NCBI GenBank assembly: GCA_038912545.1
Contig: JBCLFD010000002.1
Coordinates: 4,422-68,421 of the forward strand
Direction of reading: 5' to 3'
DNA from: Minisyncoccia bacterium
Lineage (GTDB): Bacteria > Patescibacteriota > Minisyncoccia > Phycocordibacterales > Phycocordibacteraceae
DNA length: 64,000 nt
The position numbers were made by a program, and so were the translations under genes. Positions within the stretch are counted from its first letter, which is position 1. Each line of letters opens with the position of its first letter. The notes under the pieces were generated by a model. The model was not told the DNA's origin. It did no database searches and was given only the letters and a program-made list of their open reading frames with translations. This document shows, piece after piece, positions 1 through 64,000 of the stretch.

Positions 1-588
1 CCTCTATTTCTTGTACTGCTACCGGAATAACTATCTGCGAAGGTAGGTCATAAATGGTGTGAATCGGTACCTGTACCTCTTCTTCTCTTTCTTCTTCATC
101 TGTTTCTATTTCTACTTCTTTTTCTAACTCTTCCTCGACGTCGGAAGCCCCGACATACTGCGTCGAAGTTAGCGTCTCACCTTGCCCTATACGACTAAAC
201 CACGTTTGCCAAGAGTCTTCTAAGTTTTGTGCCGGTTTTTCCGTCTCTGAGATCTGTTCCTGCTCCCTGTTTATCCGTAGACGATTTATCGACGGTAGAT
301 TCTCGCCATCGCTCGCCTCATATCTAGGAGATTCCCATGTTTTTGGCAATATTTCAGGCGTTTCTTCTACTTTTGGTTCTTCTTTGATTACATCTTTGAG
401 AGGGGTTGGAGCACCGAATCTATGGTCCTGAATAGCGCTCTCTAGTACATACCAGCCCCGTCCGACGAGTCGAGCAGGGACTCGTCCCTCTCTGCAGAGT
501 TGACCTACATAATCTTTTGCATACCCAGTAAGCTTCGCGGCGCGTTTAGACGATATGTAAACTTTCTCGCCAATGAGTATCTCATCCA
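1..588 (-). CDS. Partial CDS (3' end beyond window): N-terminal helix-turn-helix-like domain followed by an acidic low-complexity region. Hypothetical protein.
   Basis: Not in the ORF track because it runs off the window edge. Hand translation of the minus strand from the ATG at 586-588 gives MDEILIGEKVYISSKRAAKLTGYAKDYVGQLCREGRVPARLVGRGWYVLESAIQDHRF..., followed by an E/K-rich segment. The frame stays open to position 1. Confidence 0.55.
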
Positions 589-643
589 TAACAAGCATTA
601 TATGCCTATCTCGGCTCGTATGGAAGTGCTGTACACAAGCCCG

Positions 644-719
644 GTATGCAGTAGGCAGAAAGCAGTATGCGGTAGGCGGTATGCATTTCTCTGCCTTCTG
701 CTTACTGCTTACTGCTTAC
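644..719. repeat. Heptad-repeat hairpin element, copy A: 6 forward heptads (644-685), a TTTCTC loop, and 4 reverse heptads (692-719).
   Basis: Read directly: GTATGCA GTAGGCA GAAAGCA GTATGCG GTAGGCG GTATGCA tttctc TGCCTTC TGCTTAC TGCTTAC TGCTTAC. The arms are complementary at 21/28 positions by hand alignment. The gatB stop codon (702-704) lies inside the reverse arm. Confidence 0.85.
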
Positions 720-2108
720 TTTCTCGGTAATGAGTCTTCGAATTACCGCCGGGTTCCCTGCCCCTCCGCTCTCTCTCATTGCTTTGCCGATGAGATACTG
801 GAGTGCTGTTTGCTTCCCTGCACGATACTCGGCAACCACCTTTATCTCTCTTGCGAGTACGGTATCAATAACCGCACCGAGCGCATCCGTATCGTGAATC
901 TGGATGAGACCTTTTTCTTTAGCAATATTCTCTGGATCGCCACCTTCCCTGACGAGAATCGCGAGAATATCTTTCATGCCCCGAGAAGAAAGCTCTGCGC
1001 TCACGAACATACGGAGAAGTTTTGCGAATGCAGTGGGTGTAACATTTTTCTGTTCGCCGGCTAAATCAGAGACAAAATAATTTGCTGCGAGAAGTGTAAG
1101 CTCTTTCTTATTTCCAATTTCTCCCAACACTGCATCAAAAAATGCACTGCGCGGAATCGTCGCGATGATGAATTCTATATCGGGCTGTTTGAGTCCTCCG
1201 TGGGCATATCGTGCGCGTCGTTCCCACGGCAATTCGGGTAACGATGCTGTAATCGTCTCGAGAGAAAATTCCGGAATCTCGCCACAATATAACTTCGGCA
1301 AGTCCGGCTCCGGGAAGTAGCGGTAGTCGGCGCCCCCTTCCTTAAACCGCTGATGGAATGTCTCCTGCTTCGCTTCGTCCCACCCACGTGTCTCTTGTAC
1401 TACCTTCCCTCCCGAGTCAATAAGTTTGCTCTGGCGCTCTATCTCGTATGCAATAGCACGTTCAACCGACCTGAAGGAATTGAGGTTTTTCACCTCTACT
1501 TTCGTCCCCAACTGCTTACTGCCTACTGCATTCTGCTTACTGACACTTATATTCGCTTCAATACGCATCTCCCCTTTCTCGAGATTCGCTTCACCAGCAC
1601 CAAGCGTGCGCAGTAAGAGCTGGAGTTCGCGCGCAAAACGACCAGCCGTCTCCGCATCGGGAATAACCGGTTCGGTAACGAGTTCCATAAGTGGGATGCC
1701 GGCACGATTAAAATCAACAAGACTTTTATTATTTCCGTGCGTAGAGCGGGCGGTATCTTCTTCCAGATGCACGCGAGTGACGGCGATTCCGATGATCTCG
1801 CCGCCTTTAATGAGCGGGTTCTCATACTGACTGATTTGGTAGCCCTTCGGAATGTCAGGATAGAAATAACTCTTACGATCAAACTCAGAAAAATCGGCAA
1901 GCTTCCCTCCAATCGCCGTCCCTATGCGCAGGACGTGTCGTACCGCTTCGCGATTAATCACAGGCAGGGTGCCGGGGTGCGCGAGACAGACGGGGCACAC
2001 GTTCACATTCGATCGCGTCTCGTCCGGATTATTCGCCGAGTCGCAGAACATCTTGGTTCTAGTCTTGAGCTCCGCGTGGACCTCGAGACCGATGGTGGGG
2101 CGATACAT
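702..2108 (-). CDS. gatB: Asp-tRNA(Asn)/Glu-tRNA(Gln) amidotransferase subunit B
   Basis: ORF 702..2192 trimmed to the internal ATG at 2106-2108 (MYRPTIGLEVHAELKT, the canonical GatB N-terminus). Motifs: FDRKSYFYPDIPKGYQISQ, NRAGIPLMELVTEP, KNLNSFRSVERAIAYEIERQ. The 28 upstream codons are read-through of the heptad repeats. Confidence 0.95.
   Translation of the reverse strand: MYRPTIGLEVHAELKTRTKMFCDSANNPDETRSNVNVCPVCLAHPGTLPVINREAVRHVLRIGTAIGGKLADFSEFDRKSYFYPDIPKGYQISQYENPLIKGGEIIGIAVTRVHLEEDTARSTHGNNKSLVDFNRAGIPLMELVTEPVIPDAETAGRFARELQLLLRTLGAGEANLEKGEMRIEANISVSKQNAVGSKQLGTKVEVKNLNSFRSVERAIAYEIERQSKLIDSGGKVVQETRGWDEAKQETFHQRFKEGGADYRYFPEPDLPKLYCGEIPEFSLETITASLPELPWERRARYAHGGLKQPDIEFIIATIPRSAFFDAVLGEIGNKKELTLLAANYFVSDLAGEQKNVTPTAFAKLLRMFVSAELSSRGMKDILAILVREGGDPENIAKEKGLIQIHDTDALGAVIDTVLAREIKVVAEYRAGKQTALQYLIGKAMRESGGAGNPAVIRRLITEKVSSKQ
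1513..1540. repeat. Heptad repeat copy B: 4 reverse heptads lying in frame inside gatB.
   Basis: TGCTTAC TGCCTAC TGCATTC TGCTTAC. On the minus strand this encodes ...SKQNAVGSKQ... in the segment between the GatB NIS and GTKVEVKNLNSF blocks. Confidence 0.75.
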
Positions 2109-2109
2109 A

Positions 2110-2232
2110 GTAGGCAGTATGCGGTATGCAGTATGCAGAGGCAAGCCCAGATAGCCAAAAACAGTATGCAGTAGGCGGTATGCCGTATGCAATATGCATT
2201 TTTCTGCTTACTGCTTACTGCTTACTGCCAAC
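2110..2232. repeat. Heptad-repeat hairpin element, copy C: 4 forward heptads (2110-2137), a 26-nt spacer, 5 forward heptads (2164-2198), a TTTTTC loop, and 4 reverse heptads (2205-2232).
   Basis: GTAGGCA GTATGCG GTATGCA GTATGCA ... GTATGCA GTAGGCG GTATGCC GTATGCA ATATGCA tttttc TGCTTAC TGCTTAC TGCTTAC TGCCAAC. It fills the whole gatB-obg intergenic space, and the obg stop codon (2208-2210) lies in the reverse arm. Confidence 0.85.
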
Positions 2233-3191
2233 AGCTTTGAAAGTTCGTCGGAGAACTTTTTTAGGGCGACAGGGTCTTCTACGGAGACCGAGAACACTTC
2301 CCTACCCGTCTCACGCTCTAGAAGTTGGACTTTAGTTTCTTGTTCTTCTGGCAAAATCAGGTCTATTTTAGACAAGATAATCATTTCTCGCTTCTCGGAT
2401 AGTCCGTGTCCGAATGCTTCTATCTCTTTCCGTACCTCTGTATATGCCGAGAGAGGGTCATCTTGGTCAGCCGAGACGAGATGTAGCAGAATTCCAGTGC
2501 GTTCTACGTGCTTTAAAAATTTTATACCGAGCCCCTTACCGGTCGATGCTCCTTCTATGAGTCCTGGGATATCCGCGATGATGTGACCATAAAAGTCACC
2601 GAGATGCGGTTCAAGAGTGGTGAAGGCATACGCACCGACCTTTGACTTCGCCCTTGTAAGAGCGTTCAGAAGCGACGACTTCCCTGCATTCGGGAGTCCG
2701 ATGAATCCTGCATCGGCAATAATCTTTAGAGTGAGTTCTATATCCCCATCCTTACTTGGCTTCCCGTCGGTCTGTTGAAAAGGGTTCTGATTCGTTGAGC
2801 TCTTAAAGCGTGCATTACCTTTCCCGCCCGTACCGCCCCTAAAAACAATAATTTCTTCATCTTCTTTCGTAATCTCATATTCCTCACCGGTCTCTACAAT
2901 ACGTGCAACGGTGCCGACAGGAACTTTTAACATCATCGGTTTACCATTCTTGCCGTGTTGGAGTTCGCCACGACCCGCTTCACCCTCTTCGGCACGAAAC
3001 TTTTTTTCGTAGCGATACGTGGCGAGTGCGGCGAGATCACGCATCCCGAGCAGGATGACGTCCCCGCCTCTACCGCCGTCACCGCCCGAAGGACCACCCT
3101 TCGCCGTCTCCTTAGTGCGCAACCAGCGAATGACGCCATTACCGCCCTTGCCCGAGGCGGCATAAATCTTCACCTGATCAGTAAATGCCAT
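2208..3191 (-). CDS. obg: GTPase Obg/CgtA
   Basis: ORF 2208..3260 trimmed to the ATG at 3189-3191 (MAFTDQVKIYAASGKGGNGV). Motifs: GGDGGRGGDV, G1 GLPNAGKSSLL, DIPGLIEGAS, LSKIDL. Confidence 0.95.
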   Translation of the reverse strand: MAFTDQVKIYAASGKGGNGVIRWLRTKETAKGGPSGGDGGRGGDVILLGMRDLAALATYRYEKKFRAEEGEAGRGELQHGKNGKPMMLKVPVGTVARIVETGEEYEITKEDEEIIVFRGGTGGKGNARFKSSTNQNPFQQTDGKPSKDGDIELTLKIIADAGFIGLPNAGKSSLLNALTRAKSKVGAYAFTTLEPHLGDFYGHIIADIPGLIEGASTGKGLGIKFLKHVERTGILLHLVSADQDDPLSAYTEVRKEIEAFGHGLSEKREMIILSKIDLILPEEQETKVQLLERETGREVFSVSVEDPVALKKFSDELSKLLAVSSKQ

Positions 3192-3197
3192 GGAATA

Positions 3198-3254
3198 GTA
3201 AGCAGTATGCAGTAAGCGGTAGGCAATAGCAATCGGAACGGTAAACAGTAGGCG
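3198..3254. repeat. Heptad repeat copy D: forward arm only.
   Basis: GTAAGCA GTATGCA GTAAGCG GTAGGCA (3198-3225), then degenerate heptads ending with GTAGGCG at 3248-3254. It lies between the obg start and the stop of the four-helix-bundle gene. Confidence 0.8.
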
Positions 3255-3260
3255 ATACAA

Positions 3261-3623
3261 CTACAGTTTGTTCATGAGTGATTCGAGCATTCGTTGTAAT
3301 TGATTAAGTTCTTGTAACGCTTCAGTTGCATCAATATGATACTCGTTCTGCATTAGTAACAACTGTGTCTCGAGCTCCGCTGCCGAACCACTAGCAATTC
3401 TTAAAAACTGAAGAAAATCTTTCTTAGTCCCTCGTTTAGAACCCTCTGCAATGTTAGACGGTACAGAAACGGCACATCTCCGTACTTGGCTTGATAGTGC
3501 GAATAATTCTTCCTTGGGTAGTTGGCGTGCAAGTCGGTAGACGAGACTAACTAATGTCATTGCCTTTTGCCAAACGCGCATGTTTTGAAATGCGCTACCA
3601 GTTTGTGTTCGTATTTCCTGCAT
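3261..3623 (-). CDS. Four-helix-bundle protein of the 23S rRNA intervening-sequence protein / DGR Avd family
   Basis: The sequence ...SAFQNMRVWQKAMTLVSLVYRLARQLPKEELFALSSQVRRCAVSVPSNIAEGSKRGTKKDFLQFLRIASGSAAELETQLLL matches the family hallmarks as I remember them (F-x-x-L-x-VWQKA, Q-x-RRAA-S-x-x-x-NIAEG, FL-x-x-A-x-GS-x-x-E). The start was chosen at the ATG at 3621-3623, which lies inside a heptad. An alternative ATG is at 3581. Confidence 0.85.
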   Translation of the reverse strand: MQEIRTQTGSAFQNMRVWQKAMTLVSLVYRLARQLPKEELFALSSQVRRCAVSVPSNIAEGSKRGTKKDFLQFLRIASGSAAELETQLLLMQNEYHIDATEALQELNQLQRMLESLMNKL

Positions 3624-3646
3624 ACCGCCTACCGCATACCGCCTAC
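3619..3646. repeat. Heptad repeat copy E: reverse arm only, preceded by loop-like TTTCC.
   Basis: gtaTTTCC TGCATAC CGCCTAC CGCATAC CGCCTAC. It contains both the start codon of the four-helix-bundle gene (3621-3623) and the secA stop codon (3629-3631). Confidence 0.8.
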
Positions 3647-6172
3647 TTCGACAATGGTCCATCCTTCAGTGAGAAGTTGCTCCACTTTTTTATATTTAAG
3701 CGTACGCGATTCATCGCCCTTCTTAATAGTCACGATATCGTTCCGACCGTAGCTCACGCCTTTCTTGATTGGCGCGGGTGCACTGCCCTCTTCAGCTCCT
3801 GCGGTGACAAGTGCCGAGCGCACTTTTGCATTTTTTTGTTCTTGTTCAGCGCGAATACGCGCATCGTCGGCAGACGCGAGTCGGGGCAACATCTCCCGAA
3901 GCGTCGCTTGAATATTCGCTTCCAAGAGGCGAAAGCGCTGAAGTCCTTCGCGACGATACTCAATTAAGGGATCGCGTTGACCGTATGCGCGAAGCGACAC
4001 CGAGTGACGTAAATATTCCATTGTTTCCAAGTGCTCCAGCCAGAACATGTCCACGATCTGCAAGAGCATGTGGCGCATGTGCGCAACAAAAGTCGTGCCG
4101 AGCTCTGCCTTCTTTGCGTCGTACGCCGTGCGCTCTGCTTCGGCCTCGCCGAGCAGGGCGAGCATAATCCCTTCCACCTCTTCGTCAGAGCCGACGAGCG
4201 CGGCACGACGCCGTGCATACATCGCGAGCCGTTGAGTATTCATCACGTCGTCATACGCGAGAACCTGCTTGCGCGAGTCAAAGTTGAACCCTTCAATACG
4301 CGTTTGCGCCGTCTCGAGAGATTTGGTAATCATTGCGCTCTCAATCGGTTCGTCTTCGGGGATACCGAACTTGCCCATCACCTTCTTCAGCGCCTCAGAG
4401 GCGAAGACGCGCATAAGCTTGTCTTCAAGGGATACAAAAAATCTCGTCTCGCCGGGATCGCCCTGACGACCCGCACGACCGCGGAGTTGATTATCAATAC
4501 GCCTCGCGTCGTGACGCTCGGTGCCGATAACCGCGAGTCCGCCCCGCTCTATAACTGCCGAGCGTTCTTCAGCGGTGGCGAGCGCACCGCCGAGCTTGAT
4601 GTCCACACCTCGGCCAGCCAAGTTTGTCGCCACAGTGATACGGCCCTGCTTCCCCGCTTCTGCAATAATCTCGCCTTCGCGTTCGTGATTCTTTGCATTC
4701 AGAAGCTCGTGGGGGACACCCGCATCGCGCAAACAATTACTCACCACCTCGTTGTCCTCAATAGAGACGGTGCCGACCAAGACCGGCTGACCCTTTTCAT
4801 ATTTCTCTTTCACCGCGCGCGCGACGGCACGATACTTCCCAGCTGTTGTTTGGAAGATAAGGTCGTCGTGGTCCTTGCGCGCGACCGGCTTATTCGTCGG
4901 CACCGCAATCACTTCAAGACCGTAGACCGTATAAAATTCCTCTTCAGAGGAGAGAGCGGTACCCGTCATGCCCGAGAGACGCCCGTACATACGAAAAAGG
5001 TTTTGGAACGTGACGGAGGCGTAGGTGCGCGTCTCGGCCTTAATCGACACATGCTCCTTCGCCTCTACTGCCTGATGCAGACCATCCGACCAACGGCGAC
5101 CGGGCTGCATCCTCCCCGTGAATTCGTCAACGATGATAATCTCGCCGTCTTTTACGACATATTCTTTATCGTTATGAAAGAGCGCCTGCGCCTTCACGGC
5201 GGTCTCCAGGTGATGCGCATATTTCACACCGCCTTCGGTATAAATATTTTCCATACCGAGTGCTATCTCTGCCTTATGGATTCCCACTTCGGTAAGCTGA
5301 ATCGCGTGCTGTTTCTCATCAATCGTATAATCCTCACCTTCTTTCAAAGAGCGCACGATACCCGCAAATTGTTCATACAAGAGAGTGGCGTCGCCTGCGG
5401 GACCGCTAATGATAAGCGGAGTGCGTGCCTCGTCTATTAAAATAGAGTCCACTTCGTCAACGATGGCATACGAAAAACCTCGTTGCATTATCTGTGAAGA
5501 ATCGTAGGCGGTATTGTCGCGCAGATAATCAAAGCCGAGTTCATTGTTCGTCGCGTAGGTGACGTCCGTGGCATACGCTTCTTTCTTAGTGACGGGACGA
5601 AGATAATCGTAAAATACGCGGAACGAACCTTCAGTATCGCGCAATGCGTCCTCTTCCTTCTCTACGTGTGCGGAGTCGTAGCAGTACGCGCCGACAGAGG
5701 TCACGACGCCGACCGTGAGTCCGAGAAAATCATACACTTGTCCCATCCACGCGCCGTCGCGCCGCGCGAGGTAATCGTTCACGGTTACTATTTGCACTCC
5801 CGTACCCGCGAGCGCGTGATAGGTCGCGGGCAATGTCGCCACGAGAGTCTTGCCTTCGCCGGTGCGCATCTCGGCGATTTTCCCCTTCGCGAGCGCGAGA
5901 CCGCCGATGAGCTGGACGTCAAAATGAGATTGCTGGAGTGTGCGCTTCGCCGCTTCGCGCACAAGCGCGAATACGAGCGGAATATCCGTTTCTGGTGCGC
6001 CACCGGCGACGCGCGCTCGCGCGCGTACTTCAGTAAAGCGCGTTCTGATTGCCTCATCAGGAAGCCCCTTCAGCTCCTCGGTGAAGATATTGGTCGCCAC
6101 GACCACCGGCGCCGCTTGCTTAATAAAGCCAGCAGATTGATTCTTCGTGAAAAGGCGATCCAGTCCGAACAT
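3629..6172 (-). CDS. secA: Preprotein translocase ATPase SecA
   Basis: ORF 3629..6199 trimmed to the ATG at 6170-6172 (MFGLDRLFTKNQ). Motifs: MRTGEGKTLVATLP, DEVDSILIDEARTPLIISG, TNLAGRGVDIKLGG, GRAGRQGDPG. Confidence 0.97.
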   Translation of the reverse strand: MFGLDRLFTKNQSAGFIKQAAPVVVATNIFTEELKGLPDEAIRTRFTEVRARARVAGGAPETDIPLVFALVREAAKRTLQQSHFDVQLIGGLALAKGKIAEMRTGEGKTLVATLPATYHALAGTGVQIVTVNDYLARRDGAWMGQVYDFLGLTVGVVTSVGAYCYDSAHVEKEEDALRDTEGSFRVFYDYLRPVTKKEAYATDVTYATNNELGFDYLRDNTAYDSSQIMQRGFSYAIVDEVDSILIDEARTPLIISGPAGDATLLYEQFAGIVRSLKEGEDYTIDEKQHAIQLTEVGIHKAEIALGMENIYTEGGVKYAHHLETAVKAQALFHNDKEYVVKDGEIIIVDEFTGRMQPGRRWSDGLHQAVEAKEHVSIKAETRTYASVTFQNLFRMYGRLSGMTGTALSSEEEFYTVYGLEVIAVPTNKPVARKDHDDLIFQTTAGKYRAVARAVKEKYEKGQPVLVGTVSIEDNEVVSNCLRDAGVPHELLNAKNHEREGEIIAEAGKQGRITVATNLAGRGVDIKLGGALATAEERSAVIERGGLAVIGTERHDARRIDNQLRGRAGRQGDPGETRFFVSLEDKLMRVFASEALKKVMGKFGIPEDEPIESAMITKSLETAQTRIEGFNFDSRKQVLAYDDVMNTQRLAMYARRRAALVGSDEEVEGIMLALLGEAEAERTAYDAKKAELGTTFVAHMRHMLLQIVDMFWLEHLETMEYLRHSVSLRAYGQRDPLIEYRREGLQRFRLLEANIQATLREMLPRLASADDARIRAEQEQKNAKVRSALVTAGAEEGSAPAPIKKGVSYGRNDIVTIKKGDESRTLKYKKVEQLLTEGWTIVEVGGMR

Positions 6173-6204
6173 TATTTGTATTATACCATTTGGACACAAA
6201 AACA

Positions 6205-6243
6205 GCTCAAAACAAAAATGTCCCGCTAAGAGCGGGACATTTT
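6205..6243 (-). terminator. Rho-independent terminator candidate
   Basis: Perfect inverted repeat aaaatgtcccgct / agcgggacatttt (6215-6227 / 6231-6243, loop aag). On the minus strand the stem is followed by a TTTTTGTTTT tract. It sits between the small basic ORF and the secA start. Confidence 0.7.
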
Positions 6244-6255
6244 GACGAGACTTGA

Positions 6256-6321
6256 TTAGCGGCGGCGCTTTGCTGCCTTTCGCTTCGTTGTCTTCTTTGC
6301 AGCCTTTCTTTTTTTTGCCAT
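6256..6321 (-). CDS. Possible 21-codon highly basic peptide (MAKKRKAAKKTTKRKAAKRRR)
   Basis: Hand translation from the ATG at 6319-6321 to the TAA at 6256-6258, immediately followed by the strong terminator. No clear Shine-Dalgarno sequence. Too short for homology-free confidence. Confidence 0.3.
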   Translation of the reverse strand: MAKKRKAAKKTTKRKAAKRRR

Positions 6322-6420
6322 GGTTGTGTGCGAATTAAAATTATTAGTAGGTCGACCCTGCGTGTATTATCGCGCGTGTAGAAAATATTTGTGAGATTTT
6401 TTTTCAAACTGTGGATAAGT

Positions 6421-6450
6421 ATTAAAATGTTTTTGAAAATTATTTTTCAA
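6421..6450 (-). promoter_or_regulatory. Sigma70-like promoter candidate (TTGAAA - 18 nt - TTTAAT)
   Basis: Minus-strand reading of 6450->6421 gives TTGAAAaataattttcaaaaacatTTTAAT, in the AT-rich gap after the murB stop. Pattern match only. Confidence 0.25.
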
Positions 6451-7453
6451 TGTCGCCGAATGTTTCTACTTCTCTTTCAATCGTAATTCCGGTCGCGTCC
6501 TGCACGCGCCGCGCGACGTCGTGCGCGAGCGCATCAACATCAGAAGCAGTCGCACCCTTTTGCGCGACGATGACGAGCGGGTGCTTTTCATACAGTCGCG
6601 CTCCGCCGACACGAAGTCCCTTGAGCGACAGCGCGTGATCAAGAATCCAGGCGAGCGATATTTTTGTTGTGTCGTCACCTTGTGGAAACATTGGCAATTC
6701 TGGAAATCTGCGTGCGAGTTCATCGGCTTTTGTTTTTGATACGACTGGATTTTTAAAGAAAGAGCCCGCCGTTCCCGTCTCTCCGTCACTCGGGAACTTA
6801 TTCGCACGAATAACACGGACTGCGTGTGCCACCTCTCTCGGCGTCGCGAGTGCTACTCCCGCTTCGCGCGCCTTAACGAGATCGGGGTATGAAATATTCA
6901 GCGCGCCCTGCGCATTCAACATAAGCGCAACGCGCGTGATAATAAAATCTTTTTTCTCTTTGAAGACGCTTGTGCGGTATCCGAACTCCGCCTGTTCGCG
7001 TGAAAAGCGAATTGGTTCACTCGTTACGCGATTAATCGCGTCAACATATTCAACAGTTGGCGCGAGCTCGGCGCCGTAGGCGCCGATATTCTGCACCACC
7101 GCACCGCCCACCGAGCCGGGAATGCCCGCAAGATTTTCAATGCCGTACAAATTGTGTGCAGTCGTCGCATCAACCACGTCGTCCCATCGCGCTTCCGCAC
7201 CCGCTATCAAACGTGGACATCCCATGGACACGCTTGTGATGGCGACTTTGAGCACGACACCCGCGATGCCTTCGTCTGGTACGAGTATATTGCTCCCTGA
7301 ACCGAGTATAAAAAGTTCCAAATTTTTCGCGCGCGCAAACTCAAGCGCTTCGCGAATGTCGTCGTCGTTTTTCGCTTCAATAAAATACCGCGCGGGACCG
7401 CCGATGCGGAATGTCGTGAATGGAGCGAGCGCGACATCCTCGCGAACGATCAT
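6440..7453 (-). CDS. murB: UDP-N-acetylenolpyruvoylglucosamine reductase
   Basis: 337 aa. MIVREDVALAPFTTFRIGGPARYF, LGSGSNILV, and the FAD-binding/MurB C-terminal pattern GYRTSVFK ... GSFFKNP. Confidence 0.93.
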   Translation of the reverse strand: MIVREDVALAPFTTFRIGGPARYFIEAKNDDDIREALEFARAKNLELFILGSGSNILVPDEGIAGVVLKVAITSVSMGCPRLIAGAEARWDDVVDATTAHNLYGIENLAGIPGSVGGAVVQNIGAYGAELAPTVEYVDAINRVTSEPIRFSREQAEFGYRTSVFKEKKDFIITRVALMLNAQGALNISYPDLVKAREAGVALATPREVAHAVRVIRANKFPSDGETGTAGSFFKNPVVSKTKADELARRFPELPMFPQGDDTTKISLAWILDHALSLKGLRVGGARLYEKHPLVIVAQKGATASDVDALAHDVARRVQDATGITIEREVETFGDIEK

Positions 7454-9645
7454 TGTGGAACCGTCTTCCCTGCCTGGCCGGCAGGCAGGCCTTCTATTTG
7501 CTTGAGTGCTTCGGCACCGGCGGCGGCGACATCGGGAAAGAGTTCAACCGCTTTACGAATTATTTTAATCGCGTTCGCATTATCGCCGGCGGCATAGTAG
7601 ACGGCGGCGAGCCCGAACCACGTTTGTGCCGAAGCGTTTTGCGCCGAGGTGCGCAGCTGCCAGAGCGCGGTGAGTCGCGGCCAATTCTTCGTGCGATAGT
7701 ACGCGATGCTCAAGATGTCGCTATCCACTACGGTGGTGCCATATGCCTTCATCAGCACAGCGTCGGCCCGAGCGAGGTCGCCCGCAACGATATTGCCCAC
7801 GGCCGCATACGTGGCCAGGTTAGTGAACTGTGGTCCGAGCTCATACGCCGTATTAAAATCAATTTGAACCTGCTTCAGATTACCCGCCTCCCATTCCGTT
7901 TGACCGGCTTCAAGCCACATCTGCTCCTTCCGCGGAGAGAGAGATATCGCGATTCTAATTTGTTCTAGCGCGCTCTTCGTATCGCTAACGATACGGTACC
8001 CGTAGGCGAGCTGGAGCCGTATGCGCGCGTCAGCCGGATAGCGCGCCACTTGTTTCTGCATCTCTTCTATCGCGAGTGTGACCGCCTTCTGCTTCACCTC
8101 GTTAGTGACCGCAGTACTCTGTACAATGCCACCGGCAAAAGAAATAAGCTGTTCGCGTATTTCTTGTGCGGCAAACGAAGGATGCTGTACGAGGTTTTGA
8201 AAGAGCGCGAGATTCCCTTCTGGCCCTTTCTGGTTCGGCGAAATCGCTCTCACGAGTTCTCCGGCAGCACGCATGCTGGGGACGTTCACGAACCAGACGA
8301 GCGCGAACAGCACCACTGCAGCGACTGGAAGTGCGTACGTAACCCCGAGCTCGGCATCGAGCTCGGGAGCTTTTTCAAGTCGTTCGATAGGGCGTGCGGC
8401 TTGCGAATCAATCAGTGCGAGGATAGCGAAGAAGTAGATATAAGAATAGAGATTATCAAATACGAACACATTGTGGGCAGCGTAGCCGACGATGGCGGCG
8501 GTGAGCAGGATGCGTTCGGGTCGTGAAAATTCGGAGCGTCGCCAGAGTAAAACAATCGCCGATATGAAAAGCGATATGTAGAACACGAATGCCGGCAGAC
8601 CGCCCGCCAAGAGCCAATCAATAAATGCATTGTGTGCGCGGTCAAACCAGACCTCCTGCGCGTAGAGCGACGGGTCGTAATACTTATTGAAGACATAATT
8701 AAATCCTTCTTGTCCCCATCCGACAACGGGTCGCTCGCGGAATCCTTGCCACGCCATATGCCAGATAGTGAAGCGCGTTTGGCCGTCGGCGAGCGAGATT
8801 GAAGCGATGCGCTGCAAAGTGCTGTTGCCTTGAACGAATGCGGAGCCGCGCGCGAGATAGAAACTGCCGACGAACACGATTATAGCCACACATACCCACG
8901 CGGCCGCGCGCCGCGCCTTGCCGCTTGCCGTAAAAGTGAAGAGCACCGCCGAGAGAAACAGCGCGAGCGTGAGACCGATAATCGCACCGCGCGTTTCAGT
9001 ATAGAAAATGAGAACGGCTTCAAGCACTGCAAACGCAATGAGCGAATACTTCAGCCACATGCGTTTCTCGGTGAGCGCGAGCCACCCTGCAATGAAGACA
9101 TTGAAGAGCAGGTAGATCGCGAGATACGCAGAATTGCCGAGTGAAGCATCAATACGAACCGAACCCTGATGAATGTCCAACTTCCCCGCGAGCTGGAGCA
9201 GAGCGTACGCGCTCACGACAAGTGCGACACCGAGCGAGGTGAGGAACCAGGCACGCCACTTCTTTTCCACGCGCAGGACGTTGGAAGCGGCGAAGAAGAG
9301 ACCGAGCAAGTGCGCGAGGAGTACCCATCCCTCCATCCGCTCAAAGTTGCTCCAAAACGCTTTAACGGCATTCGGTGCGAATGCGTCTGCGATAAACATC
9401 CAGACGACAAATGCGGTGACGAGTGCGCCGAGCCAGGAGAAGCGCGGACGGTATGCCTTATCAAGTAGTGCGAGCACGACCCACGCCACCACAGCTATCT
9501 CAATAAGTATGCGTAGATAAAACGCCTTGCCGGTGATAAACGGGAAGAAGAACGAGCTCGCAACGATGAGCGGCGTAATAGGTAGAAGAAAAAGCGCGGT
9601 AAGCGCCACCCATCGAGCTGTCTGTTTCGCCGTCCCACTCTGCAT
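7450..9645 (-). CDS. O-antigen ligase-like (Wzy_C) polytopic membrane protein with a C-terminal TPR domain
   Basis: 731 aa with about 12 hydrophobic segments. Contains the TETRGAIIGL and FDRAHNAFIDWLLAGGL blocks typical of the O-antigen ligase/Wzy_C family. The C-terminal ~200 aa has TPR-like A/Y-rich repeats. ATGA overlap with murB. Confidence 0.75.
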   Translation of the reverse strand: MQSGTAKQTARWVALTALFLLPITPLIVASSFFFPFITGKAFYLRILIEIAVVAWVVLALLDKAYRPRFSWLGALVTAFVVWMFIADAFAPNAVKAFWSNFERMEGWVLLAHLLGLFFAASNVLRVEKKWRAWFLTSLGVALVVSAYALLQLAGKLDIHQGSVRIDASLGNSAYLAIYLLFNVFIAGWLALTEKRMWLKYSLIAFAVLEAVLIFYTETRGAIIGLTLALFLSAVLFTFTASGKARRAAAWVCVAIIVFVGSFYLARGSAFVQGNSTLQRIASISLADGQTRFTIWHMAWQGFRERPVVGWGQEGFNYVFNKYYDPSLYAQEVWFDRAHNAFIDWLLAGGLPAFVFYISLFISAIVLLWRRSEFSRPERILLTAAIVGYAAHNVFVFDNLYSYIYFFAILALIDSQAARPIERLEKAPELDAELGVTYALPVAAVVLFALVWFVNVPSMRAAGELVRAISPNQKGPEGNLALFQNLVQHPSFAAQEIREQLISFAGGIVQSTAVTNEVKQKAVTLAIEEMQKQVARYPADARIRLQLAYGYRIVSDTKSALEQIRIAISLSPRKEQMWLEAGQTEWEAGNLKQVQIDFNTAYELGPQFTNLATYAAVGNIVAGDLARADAVLMKAYGTTVVDSDILSIAYYRTKNWPRLTALWQLRTSAQNASAQTWFGLAAVYYAAGDNANAIKIIRKAVELFPDVAAAGAEALKQIEGLPAGQAGKTVPQ

Positions 9646-63037: not shown

Positions 63038-64000
63038 CTACCTATCGCCTTTCAGCACATTTTTTAATGTTTCTTCGGATACTTCGTACGGAATTTTTCC
63101 GACACGCGGCGGCTCTACCGCCGGACTCGGTATTGGCATTTCCTGCCTACCGCCTACTGCCTTCTGCATACTTCTCTCAAGCACGTCCGCGAGCGCGCTC
63201 TTCAACGATTCGTCTTTCTGCTTCTCCTTTTGCTCGCGCTCGGCGCCCGTCTTTTGCGTCATATTCCGCAGAATGGTTTTGAGCTCCTCGTGGCTCTTGC
63301 CTGGTGCAATCGGGCGAATCATTGGCTTGGGAGGTAACTGGCGAAAAATGGGTTTCTCTATTTTCGGCTCTGGGCGCTTGGGTATGTACATCGCCTTCTT
63401 ATTCGCGCGCGCGTCGGCGGGTAGGGGCGCGGCAGTACTCTCGGCGAGCTCTTTCAAAATTGTTTCTTCAACTCCCGCGCGAGGTGCCGTGAATTGCTCT
63501 CTTGATGCAGCAATGATTTGTTCTCGATACGACACCTTTGGCGCCTCTATCGGCGGGAGCGTCACCGCCGAGAAGGGCGCCGAACCGACACCGTCTATCA
63601 TGAGCGATAAATACACCTGCCGTTTATCCAGCGTGACCAAATCTTCTTTGGTAAACTTCGGCATAAAAATAGTTTCTAGCAGTTCGGCATCAAGAGGCCC
63701 CACACGAAAAGAGACCGTTGTACCTACGTTGCCGAAGACCGCATCGCGCACCTCCTCTTCCATCTGTTCAATGTACTGGTGCGTGATGATGAGATTCAAT
63801 TTATATTTGCGTGACTCGGAGAGAATCTCGGCGAACGTCTCATTCGCGAAGTTTTGGAACTCGTCAACGTAGAAGTAGAAGTTCGGTTTCTTCGCTAATT
63901 CTGCCGCAGAGAGATTGGCACGACTCATCGCACCGAGGAAGATGCGCGTGGTGAGCATGCTCCCGAGAAGCCGCATATTGGTCTCGCCGACAAGCCCTTT
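63038..64000 (-). CDS. VirD4/TraG-like (type IV coupling protein / DUF87-like) ATPase, 3' portion; the 5' end is beyond the window
   Basis: FYFYVDEFQNFA (Walker B-like DE), SESRKYKLNLIITHQYIEQ. The frame remains open from 63976 to 64000 (KGLVGETN upstream of the track Met). Confidence 0.55.
   Translation of the reverse strand, partial: KGLVGETNMRLLGSMLTTRIFLGAMSRANLSAAELAKKPNFYFYVDEFQNFANETFAEILSESRKYKLNLIITHQYIEQMEEEVRDAVFGNVGTTVSFRVGPLDAELLETIFMPKFTKEDLVTLDKRQVYLSLMIDGVGSAPFSAVTLPPIEAPKVSYREQIIAASREQFTAPRAGVEETILKELAESTAAPLPADARANKKAMYIPKRPEPKIEKPIFRQLPPKPMIRPIAPGKSHEELKTILRNMTQKTGAEREQKEKQKDESLKSALADVLERSMQKAVGGRQEMPIPSPAVEPPRVGKIPYEVSEETLKNVLKGDR
63144..63171. repeat. Heptad repeat copy F: 4 reverse heptads plus a loop remnant, in frame inside the ATPase C-terminal tail
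   Basis: ggcaTTTCC TGCCTAC CGCCTAC TGCCTTC TGCATAC. It encodes ...SMQKAVGGRQEM... on the minus strand. Confidence 0.75.

Follow-up and report, generated by a model that had tools for sequence, protein, structure and literature searches.

The junctions of the secA–obg–gatB block in this stretch of DNA (64,000 nt of contig JBCLFD010000002.1, assembly GCA_038912545.1, referred to below as the window) carry runs of degenerate 7-nt tandem repeats (heptads), and the question raised by this locus is what kind of element these repeats belong to. A preliminary description made from the sequence had placed them in the non-coding spacers between four consecutive housekeeping genes. Here, a gene overlooked in that description was found between secA and obg, encoding a four-helix-bundle (4HB) protein of the S23p/TIGR02436 family, and stop codons of the surrounding genes were found to lie inside the repeat arrays. 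The six repeat loci of the window are probably one family of selfish elements, organized around the 4HB gene and resembling the intervening sequences (IVSs) of 23S rRNA genes.

In its complete form, the element consists of approximately four G-rich heptads, the 4HB open reading frame (ORF), a short spacer and approximately four complementary C-rich heptads. In the window its parts are as follows:

Complete cassette: 3198..3646, minus strand, 449 nt; G-rich heptad arm, 4HB gene and C-rich heptad arm, between secA and obg.
5' (G-rich) arm: 3619..3646, minus strand; GTAGGCG GTATGCG GTAGGCG GTATGCA.
4HB protein gene: 3261..3623, minus strand, 120 aa; TIGR02436 / PF05635 '23S rRNA intervening sequence protein'.
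3' (C-rich) arm: 3198..3254, minus strand; CGCCTAC TGTTTAC and, beyond a gap of 15 nt, TGCCTAC CGCTTAC TGCATAC TGCTTAC.

The encoded protein scored 120.5 bits against NCBIfam TIGR02436 (cutoff 24), and 6573 homologues were found, with precomputed PF05635 assignments. XCC0516 (PDB 2GSC) is also a homologue (E 3e-19), and the five deposited chains of 2GSC fit the homopentamer reported for XCC0516 (PMC4990558). Avd, the accessory protein of diversity-generating retroelements, was considered as an alternative identity and rejected, as the score against NF033474 was 24.7 bits (cutoff 80) and the neighboring genes are secA and obg. The 5' arm holds the secA stop codon TAG (3629-3631) as well as the 4HB start codon ATG (3621-3623, within the GTATGCA heptad), and the 3' arm, which follows the TAG stop codon of the 4HB ORF, ends 6 nt (TATTCC) before the obg ATG. 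The host gene upstream takes its stop codon from the GTA-type arm, whose last GTATGCA provides the 4HB start codon 5-12 nt downstream; in the relatives with a cassette, the 4HB ATG always lies in this final heptad and the secA stop codon lies at that distance upstream, within the arm.

When the sense RNA of 3185-3665 was folded, the two arms formed a continuous closing stem of ~25 bp in both the minimum free energy (MFE) and centroid structures (MFE -142.9 kcal/mol, z -3.4), and pairing of the arms by hand joined 27 of 28 positions with G.U pairs counted. Conversely, the antisense fold produced a stem that was broken at every heptad (z -1.7). Across six cassettes, 88% of stem cells were paired, compared to 18-45% when the register was slid.

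This anatomy is that of the ORF-bearing IVSs found in the 23S rRNA genes of Leptospira and Coxiella burnetii. The Coxiella IVS is 444 nt long (449 nt here) with a 28-bp terminal stem, an S23p ORF and heptamers before its ATG, and RNase III cuts within the stem, excising the element (PMC4990558). Shared with the window unit are the ~28-bp stem of terminal inverted repeats (window arms, 28 nt), the enclosed PF05635/TIGR02436 ORF with tandem heptamers directly before its start, a sporadic distribution with evidence of horizontal transfer, and the existence of ORF-less hairpin versions (in Salmonella for the IVS). In contrast to the 23S rRNA IVSs, which are found in helix 25 or 45, the window unit is located between the protein genes secA and obg, both of its arms are composed wholly of heptads, and its 5' arm doubles as host stop codon and ORF start codon. 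As the window unit has the parts of the Coxiella IVS but lies in a protein-coding operon, we interpret it as an IVS-like 4HB cassette, accompanied in the window by gene-less derivatives and in-frame remnants. What is new is an IVS/S23p element outside rRNA with heptamer arms of the type known from cyanobacterial short tandemly repeated repetitive (STRR) sequences. The repeats match no Rfam family and no published heptad string that could be found. The earlier view that the motif could not be recognized as a described element does not hold for the 449-nt unit as a whole, given its IVS anatomy. An Rfam search of window positions 1-8000 (E<=1) returned chance microRNA-precursor matches at the hairpin at 644-719 alone, and no rRNA, while the open-access literature yielded no paper containing the heptad dimer strings and none linking the 4HB family generally to heptamer arms.

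By analogy to the ORF-bearing 23S IVSs, a mechanism can be proposed by which such an insertion would be tolerated. In a polycistronic transcript, the arms would pair into a ~28-bp stem that RNase III would be expected to cut. Cleavage would set the 4HB message free and split the host cistrons apart, and translation of the 4HB protein may be coupled to termination of the upstream host gene (termination-reinitiation).

A regular expression, Tandem Repeats Finder (TRF) and our own phase-aware scan agreed on nine period-7 arrays of 4-6 heptads each, which confirmed the six loci named previously:

Heptad arrays: 644-685; 692-719; 1513-1540; 2110-2137; 2164-2198; 2205-2232; 3198-3225 (plus two degenerate heptads to 3254); 3619-3646; 63144-63171.

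The window contains nine matches to (GTADGCR)x3, compared to 0.00 expected from 100 dinucleotide-preserving shuffles. Of the proposed skeleton GTAKGCR, the G-T-A-x-G-C-x heptads are real, but position 4 is A, G or T and is not restricted to K; the commonest reverse-arm unit is GTAAGCA. Between ~4 kb and 63 kb, TRF and the scan detected just trivial two-copy period-7 matches, so that the reported absence of arrays from the glycan locus was reproduced. In this ~49-kb glycan-biosynthesis block (window 7000-62000), all genes are on the minus strand and are tightly packed, each overlapping or directly adjoining the next. A constant polarity of all copies on the plus strand, and thereby relative to transcription, had also been claimed and was not found. 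All window genes are on the minus strand, and the plus strand carries GTA-type arrays (644-685, 2110-2198 and 3198-3254) as well as TAC-type arrays (692-719, 1513-1540, 2205-2232, 3619-3646 and 63144-63171). A full hairpin of GTA-arm, loop and TAC-arm is strand-symmetric and therefore has no orientation relative to transcription. Similarly, not all six loci are at gene junctions, as 1513-1540 lies inside gatB and 63144-63171 inside a VirD4/TraG-like ORF. The host genes of the block and its two gene-less hairpins are:

secA: 3629..6172, minus strand; host gene with its last codons and stop in the cassette 5' arm.
obg: 2208..3191, minus strand; host gene that extends at its 3' end into hairpin C.
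gatB: 702..2108, minus strand; host gene that extends at its 3' end into hairpin A.
Hairpin A, gene-less: 644..719, no strand assigned, 3' of gatB; on the minus strand (GTAAGCA)x3 GAAGGCA, loop GAGAAA, six TAC-type heptads.
Hairpin C, gene-less and composite: 2110..2232, no strand assigned, taking up the whole spacer between obg and gatB; minus-strand order (GTAAGCA)x3, loop GAAAAA, five-heptad TAC-type array.

Both hairpins look like gene-less members of the same heptad family as the cassette. The first arm of hairpin A contains the gatB stop codon TAA (702-704) and that of hairpin C the obg stop codon TAA (2208-2210), as the cassette arm does for secA; GatB and Obg consequently end in the same repeat-encoded tail, VSSKQ*. 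On the minus strand, hairpin C continues with a 26-nt spacer and a further TAC-type array of four heptads, which directly adjoins the gatB ATG. The arms of hairpins A and C measure 28-30 nt and are complementary at 82-83% of positions. None of 200 shuffles folded as well as these hairpins (z -3.0 to -6.6), and the hairpins and plus-strand loops (TTTCTC and TTTTTC) given in the preliminary description were correct. Together, the array scans, shuffles and fold statistics establish that the repeats and hairpins are real. We infer that the gene-less hairpins derive from cassette arms.

Stable hairpins positioned exactly at gene 3' ends could also be selected by the host as RNA structures, i.e., terminators, 3'-end stabilizers or operon punctuation similar to repetitive extragenic palindromic (REP) sequences, with no relation to a selfish element. 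REP-like stabilization of upstream mRNA is well established in E. coli. A consensus terminator and promoter scan found nothing on any element (both terminator-like sites in 400-3900 are outside the elements) and no T-run follows any hairpin, meaning that the U-tract of an intrinsic terminator is absent, as had been noted before. In addition, close relatives manage with gaps of 3-15 nt at these junctions, in another strain (L001) the site is occupied by a different heptad family, the antisense RNA of hairpins A and C folds better than the sense RNA, and half-arrays and in-frame coding copies cannot form hairpins. We therefore consider host-selected hairpins a very unlikely explanation.

The two remaining loci are arrays that have become fixed in frame inside tolerant protein loops:

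In-frame array within gatB: 1513..1540, minus strand; GTAAGCA GAATGCA GTAGGCA GTAAGCA, part of the hypervariable surface loop SVSKQNAVGSKQ.
In-frame array within the gene of a VirD4/TraG-type coupling protein: 63144..63171, minus strand; GTATGCA GAAGGCA GTAGGCG GTAGGCA, in an indel-rich C-terminal linker.

The gatB array is identical in the related loci L001 and L128, and the GatB loops of L002, L124, L125, L127 and L129 are different and lack the array. Among Kaiserbacteria, this loop (between NISVSK and VEVKN, window 1513-1545) varies from 4 to 23 residues and is hypervariable in both length and sequence. As the conserved codons GTC AGT AAG upstream of it resemble a heptad, the array might have originated from a local seed. 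For the VirD4/TraG-like protein, the closest homologue (78% identity) lacks the 63144-63171 segment. Rickettsia palindromic elements are selfish and can likewise sit in frame in tolerant surface regions of protein genes, which the copies in the gatB loop and the VirD4-like linker resemble; unlike the tandem heptads described here, they are fixed-sequence units of 100-150 bp without a cargo gene.

Comparison with related loci (nucleotide identity of obg in brackets) revealed that the elements are insertions into gene junctions that otherwise measure 3-15 nt. In L002 and L003 (81-82%), the secA-obg-gatB gaps are 3 and 15 nt, with no 4HB gene and no arrays at these junctions, and arrays are also missing from the junctions of L124-L127 (72-73% in L124, L125 and L127; the Obg protein of L126 is identical to that of L125). 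L128 (93%) has the cassette with two extra heptads in its 3' arm and an identical hairpin A, and its obg|gatB hairpin has been extensively rebuilt. L001 (93%) has no 4HB gene. Its junctions hold another heptad family (CCAAGCA/CCAAGAA, complement TTGGTGC) and its gatB-internal GTAAGCA array has been kept; both boundaries of its element between gatB and a helix-turn-helix (HTH) gene match those of the window element, and at secA|obg and obg|gatB the upstream boundary only. Both the number of heptads and the sequence of the loop turn over rapidly from strain to strain. The content of hairpin C differs in L128, L129 and L001 (with a spacer of just 15 nt in L002 and L003), and hairpin A has a loop variant in L129, is substituted by a CCAAGMA-type half-array in L001 and is absent from L002.

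The cassette architecture itself is common to L128, L129, L210, L211 and L213. L210 and L211 (71-73%) share the insertion site of the cassette and its heptad family, in a 4+4 arrangement, and their 4HB ORF is 66-72% identical to that of the window. L213 also carries 4+4 heptads at this site, and its obg|gatB junction holds a hairpin of this family that lacks a gene. With a mean column identity of 91%, the arms are therefore more conserved than the ORF. The cassette has also been exchanged between diverged lineages: L129 is only distantly related at the host genes (obg 72.1%, gatB 77% identical), yet its 4HB ORF is 97.2% identical to that of the window and the whole unit 97%, with the block of high identity corresponding to the cassette and dropping at the arms. 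From this series of relatives, it follows that the cassette is old at the secA|obg site and has been lost or replaced in some lineages, that it was recently exchanged between two lineages, and that the gene-less hairpins are younger and more variable than the cassette.

Other heptad families were observed in the same relatives. The second family of L001 (CCAAGCA/CCAAGAA, complement TTGGTGC/TTGGTTC; L001 545-700, 1690-1830 and 3225-3257) has the core AAGCA in common with the GTAAGCA of the window, and traces of it are present in the obg|gatB spacer of a distant relative (L210 3110-3165). A conserved heptad hairpin of ~110 nt (CCAATTT/TCAATTT ... AAATTGA) occurs in L001 (5470-5620) and L124 (14400-14550), two Kaiserbacteria with 72% identical obg genes; it is located downstream of the HTH gene, inside a region called as a giant ORF, and the corresponding giant downstream ORF of L002 contains (AATTTCC)x4.3.

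Heptamer arms around 4HB genes proved to be widespread, recurring in many phyla. With a profile built from 30 4HB proteins, 80 metagenome 4HB loci were retrieved (L130-L209), 69 of which include both flanks. An inverted repeat bracketing the gene (score >=18) was present in 38 of these 69, compared to 1.3% for flanks paired across loci, and TRF identified a period-7 array upstream of the gene in 44 loci and downstream of it in 50, with 39 loci having both. Within the same loci, 64 of 119 junctions next to 4HB had an array versus 22 of 129 others (Fisher p = 1e-9). The arms are tandem heptads of locus-specific sequence with a median of 4.6 heptads per arm, G-rich upstream (36% G, 11% C) and C-rich downstream, and a stop codon is present in two thirds of the consensus heptads from upstream arms, although only 31% of all possible heptamers include one. 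In a crude test for open frames, a same-strand ORF ends <=260 nt upstream of 4HB in 67 of 73 loci and another starts <=260 nt downstream in 56 of 61, indicating that the cassettes are mostly co-directional inserts within operons; the host stop codon is inside a period-7 array in 22 of the 67 loci with an upstream ORF. No rRNA was found in the 40 metagenome 4HB loci examined. Viral contigs gave a similar picture, with period-7 arrays upstream of 4HB in 28 of 36 and on both sides in 22 of 36, as did finished cyanobacterial plasmids, where 4HB was flanked by heptamers in five of the eight examined, usually as complementary arms, and by octamer arms in two more. Heptamer-flanked 4HB genes were found on plasmids of Nostoc punctiforme, N. 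edaphicum, Nostoc PCC 7120, Calothrix, Anabaena sp. 90 and Pseudanabaena.

The likeness to STRR sequences suggested in the preliminary description is therefore apt, as tandem heptamers of this type flank 4HB homologues in finished Nostoc, Calothrix and Anabaena plasmids. Known heptanucleotide families include the STRRs of Calothrix and Nostoc, GGGAATC of Xanthomonas and GGGGAYT of Nostoc, for which inverted pairs were noted (PMC4692102), and TAACTGA of Beggiatoaceae (PMC4679880). The window arrays resemble these repeats in that they are tandem 7-nt units, usually in 3-6 copies, dispersed and mostly intergenic near start or stop codons, with some inverted pairs, a genome-specific family sequence and a strain-variable length. 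They differ in that GTADGCR matches no published unit found and in their host, a Kaiserbacteria-like member of the Candidate Phyla Radiation. The STRR units described by Mazel and colleagues in 1990 are reportedly CCCCAGT, TTGGTCA and CAACAGT, which differ from the window unit. STRRs have been used as fingerprinting markers since 1990 and, to our knowledge, have no known origin.

Several individual 4HB loci are of interest in their own right. In L177 (2380-2960) and L188 (1080-1650), two different contigs, a cassette occupies the same site inside a DNA-methyltransferase-like frame (...EEAWEEQ | cassette | ...NLHGIDIDPRA) and looks like an intervening sequence that splits a protein-coding gene. 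Its arms are of the GTATGCA/GAAGGCA type, and the 4HB proteins are just 41-42% identical to that of the window. On finished cyanobacterial plasmids, 4HB genes with tandem-repeat arms are also wedged into CRISPR-cas gene pairs, namely between cas6 and cas4 (L218, L221) and between cmr2 and cmr3 (L219, Picosynechococcus), and between the nrd genes of ribonucleotide reductase (L217), and Pseudanabaena arrays reach 14-16 copies. Earlier studies reported 4HB genes within cas operons (PMC3936711) and, for the Candidate Phyla Radiation, within rRNA insertions (PMC11270868). The octamer arms of Picosynechococcus and Gemmatirosa (L219 644-684 and 1053-1079, L220 520-600 and 1031-1064; AGGAGATA / ATCTCCTA and GAGGGCAG / CTGCCCTC) indicate that the period is not strictly fixed at 7. 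L209 has a 4HB cassette with CAGTTGT / CTGACAA arms and, at a distance of ~1.3 kb from it, an Acido-Lenti-1 sRNA (975-1020; Rfam RF01687, 40.9 bits).

Arrays of the window type are also found without a 4HB gene. A scan of a sequence collection for (GTADGCR)x3 identified at least 120 loci, and the figures that follow apply to the matches listed. These are distributed among Acidobacteriota, Bacteroidota, Chloroflexota, Planctomycetota, Verrucomicrobiota and some Proteobacteria, with no Patescibacteria among the matches listed. Approximately 20 inverted pairs were present, all of which had the GTA-arm first, then a spacer of 14-148 nt and the TAC-arm; the opposite order did not occur. In 43% of arrays, an ORF of >=100 codons had its stop codon within the first three heptads, compared to 5.7% at random positions, and very few arrays were inside ORFs. 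In the metagenome 4HB loci, arrays >400 nt from the 4HB gene belonged to the same heptad family as its arms in 35% of cases versus 3.4% of controls. At one further locus (L056 3560-4620, Fimbriimonadaceae), groES is preceded by three GTAAGCG heptads and then approximately ten AACGGCY heptads; a 4HB gene lies just downstream of groES, without tandem arms and with dispersed GGATGGCT motifs.

Dispersed multicopy families with inverted arms can also arise from REP/REPIN-type (REP doublets forming hairpins) or MITE-type (miniature inverted-repeat transposable element) non-autonomous transposons, mobilized in trans by a REP-associated tyrosine transposase (RAYT) or another transposase. As with REPs, bacterial interspersed mosaic elements (BIMEs) and REPINs of Proteobacteria, the window repeats are short dispersed intergenic palindromes at gene ends, with long-hairpin doublets and a heptad head (GTAG/GTAA) that recalls the GTAG head of REPs (PMC3333891). 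Hairpins A and C are also alike in arm composition and loop (GAGAAA, GAAAAA), as would be expected of copies of one element. We nevertheless regard such an origin as extremely improbable. An all-against-all comparison of 2028 ORFs within 2.5 kb of the 120 listed arrays revealed no recurrent family of transposases or other proteins, no mobility enzyme was found and no RAYT was seen near these arrays; no transposase was noticed in the window ORF list, of which no family scan was made. Flank profiles showed no target-site duplication or motif, only partial-heptad continuation, and the arms are variable-number tandem heptads instead of a fixed palindrome. Unlike REPs and REPINs, the window family includes a cargo gene and in-frame coding copies. 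An identification as MITE was rejected for similar reasons, as there is no target-site duplication or target motif and arm length varies by whole heptads.

A simpler explanation is that the arrays are ordinary heptanucleotide microsatellites, generated by polymerase slippage in slack DNA and neutral, in which case the link to 4HB would be incidental, with the gene simply inserting or being tolerated at sites that already had arrays. Heptamers are reported to be the commonest long simple sequence repeat (SSR) class in prokaryotes and have been ascribed to slippage (Mrazek 2007, as relayed in PMC4679880; PMC4692102). Copy number varies between strains, a 4HB gene is missing from the vicinity of most GTADGCR arrays listed from other phyla, and 17% of non-4HB junctions carry arrays as well. 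Slippage alone does not account for matched inverted arrays of ~4-5 units on either side of one gene family in three independent collections, for the invariant GTA-arm-first order in the ~20 pairs among the matches listed, for 4+4 heptads conserved across lineages that are ~28% diverged, or for a cassette that is 97% identical within a 72%-identical background. On balance, neutral slippage appears an unlikely explanation of these arrays.

Alternatively, the arrays could be protein binding sites, with pairing of the arms being secondary. The bound protein would possibly be the pentameric 4HB protein itself, contacting approximately one heptad per subunit, and binding to DNA or RNA would serve autoregulation, mobility or propagation of the repeats. 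The G-T-A-x-G-C-x positions do not vary on either arm and show stronger conservation than the ORF, neither covariation nor a strand bias of wobble pairs was detected, and arm length clusters at 4-5 heptads, which is reminiscent of the XCC0516 homopentamer (PMC4990558) and the five chains in 2GSC. Avd is a distant relative of the 4HB protein (24.7 bits). In diversity-generating retroelements, Avd binds reverse transcriptase and RNA. Conversely, GTADGCR arms are shared by 4HB proteins that are 41-42% identical, while quite different heptads occur at 50-55% identity, and in Coxiella S23p is probably not made in vivo (PMC4990558). For the same reason, namely that arm sequence does not follow protein similarity, a scheme in which each 4HB subtype matches its own heptad was not favored. 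Binding sites as the primary role of the arrays also seem improbable.

Even so, several observations weigh against our interpretation of the six loci as one IVS-like selfish family. Covariation, which had been proposed as a check on the arms, was no higher in the stems of six cassettes than in shuffles, and the invariance of the skeleton positions on both arms fits sequence-specific recognition or concerted repeat evolution equally well as it fits pairing. The stems of the 69 metagenome loci showed no sense-strand G.U bias (sense better in 21, antisense better in 39), the antisense RNA of hairpins A and C is more stable than the sense RNA, and the cassette stem of L129 is noticeably poorer when its arm sequences are paired by hand. 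With regard to the link between gene and arrays, the secA-obg junction of L001 is a heptad hairpin without a 4HB gene, arrays also occur at 17% of the non-4HB junctions in 4HB loci, and a search with phmmer and a hidden Markov model of 30 4HB proteins found a 4HB gene in just 2 of the 120 listed loci, adjacent to the array in neither; most gene-less arrays therefore cannot be tied to a cassette. Causation might also be reversed, with 4HB genes landing or surviving in pre-existing heptad arrays.

Overall, these findings may connect two old puzzles, namely the dominance of 7-nt units among long SSRs and the nature of the widespread 4HB/23S-IVS proteins, whose genes turn up inside rRNA genes, cas operons and housekeeping operons. 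The window provides a clean and datable example in a tiny, compact genome, in which cassette arms, gene-less hairpins and in-frame inserts of one family are found together, and its relatives display empty sites, array slippage, family replacement and cassette exchange. In its broadest form, which we put forward as speculative and rather doubtful, the idea would be that 4HB proteins (S23p/Avd-like) and inverted heptamer arms constitute one ancient, multi-phylum selfish class, in which a pentameric protein recognizes its own arms, about five heptads long, and promotes their spread or persistence, and shed gene-less arrays explain much of the prokaryotic heptamer excess (STRR, TAACTGA, GGGAATC). 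For genome annotation, heptad arrays would mark recent insertions and explain odd C-terminal tails such as VSSKQ* as element-derived. If the link between 4HB genes and heptamers holds genome-wide, it would define a new class of small selfish element outside rRNA, and this association may help explain the abundance of heptamers in bacteria.

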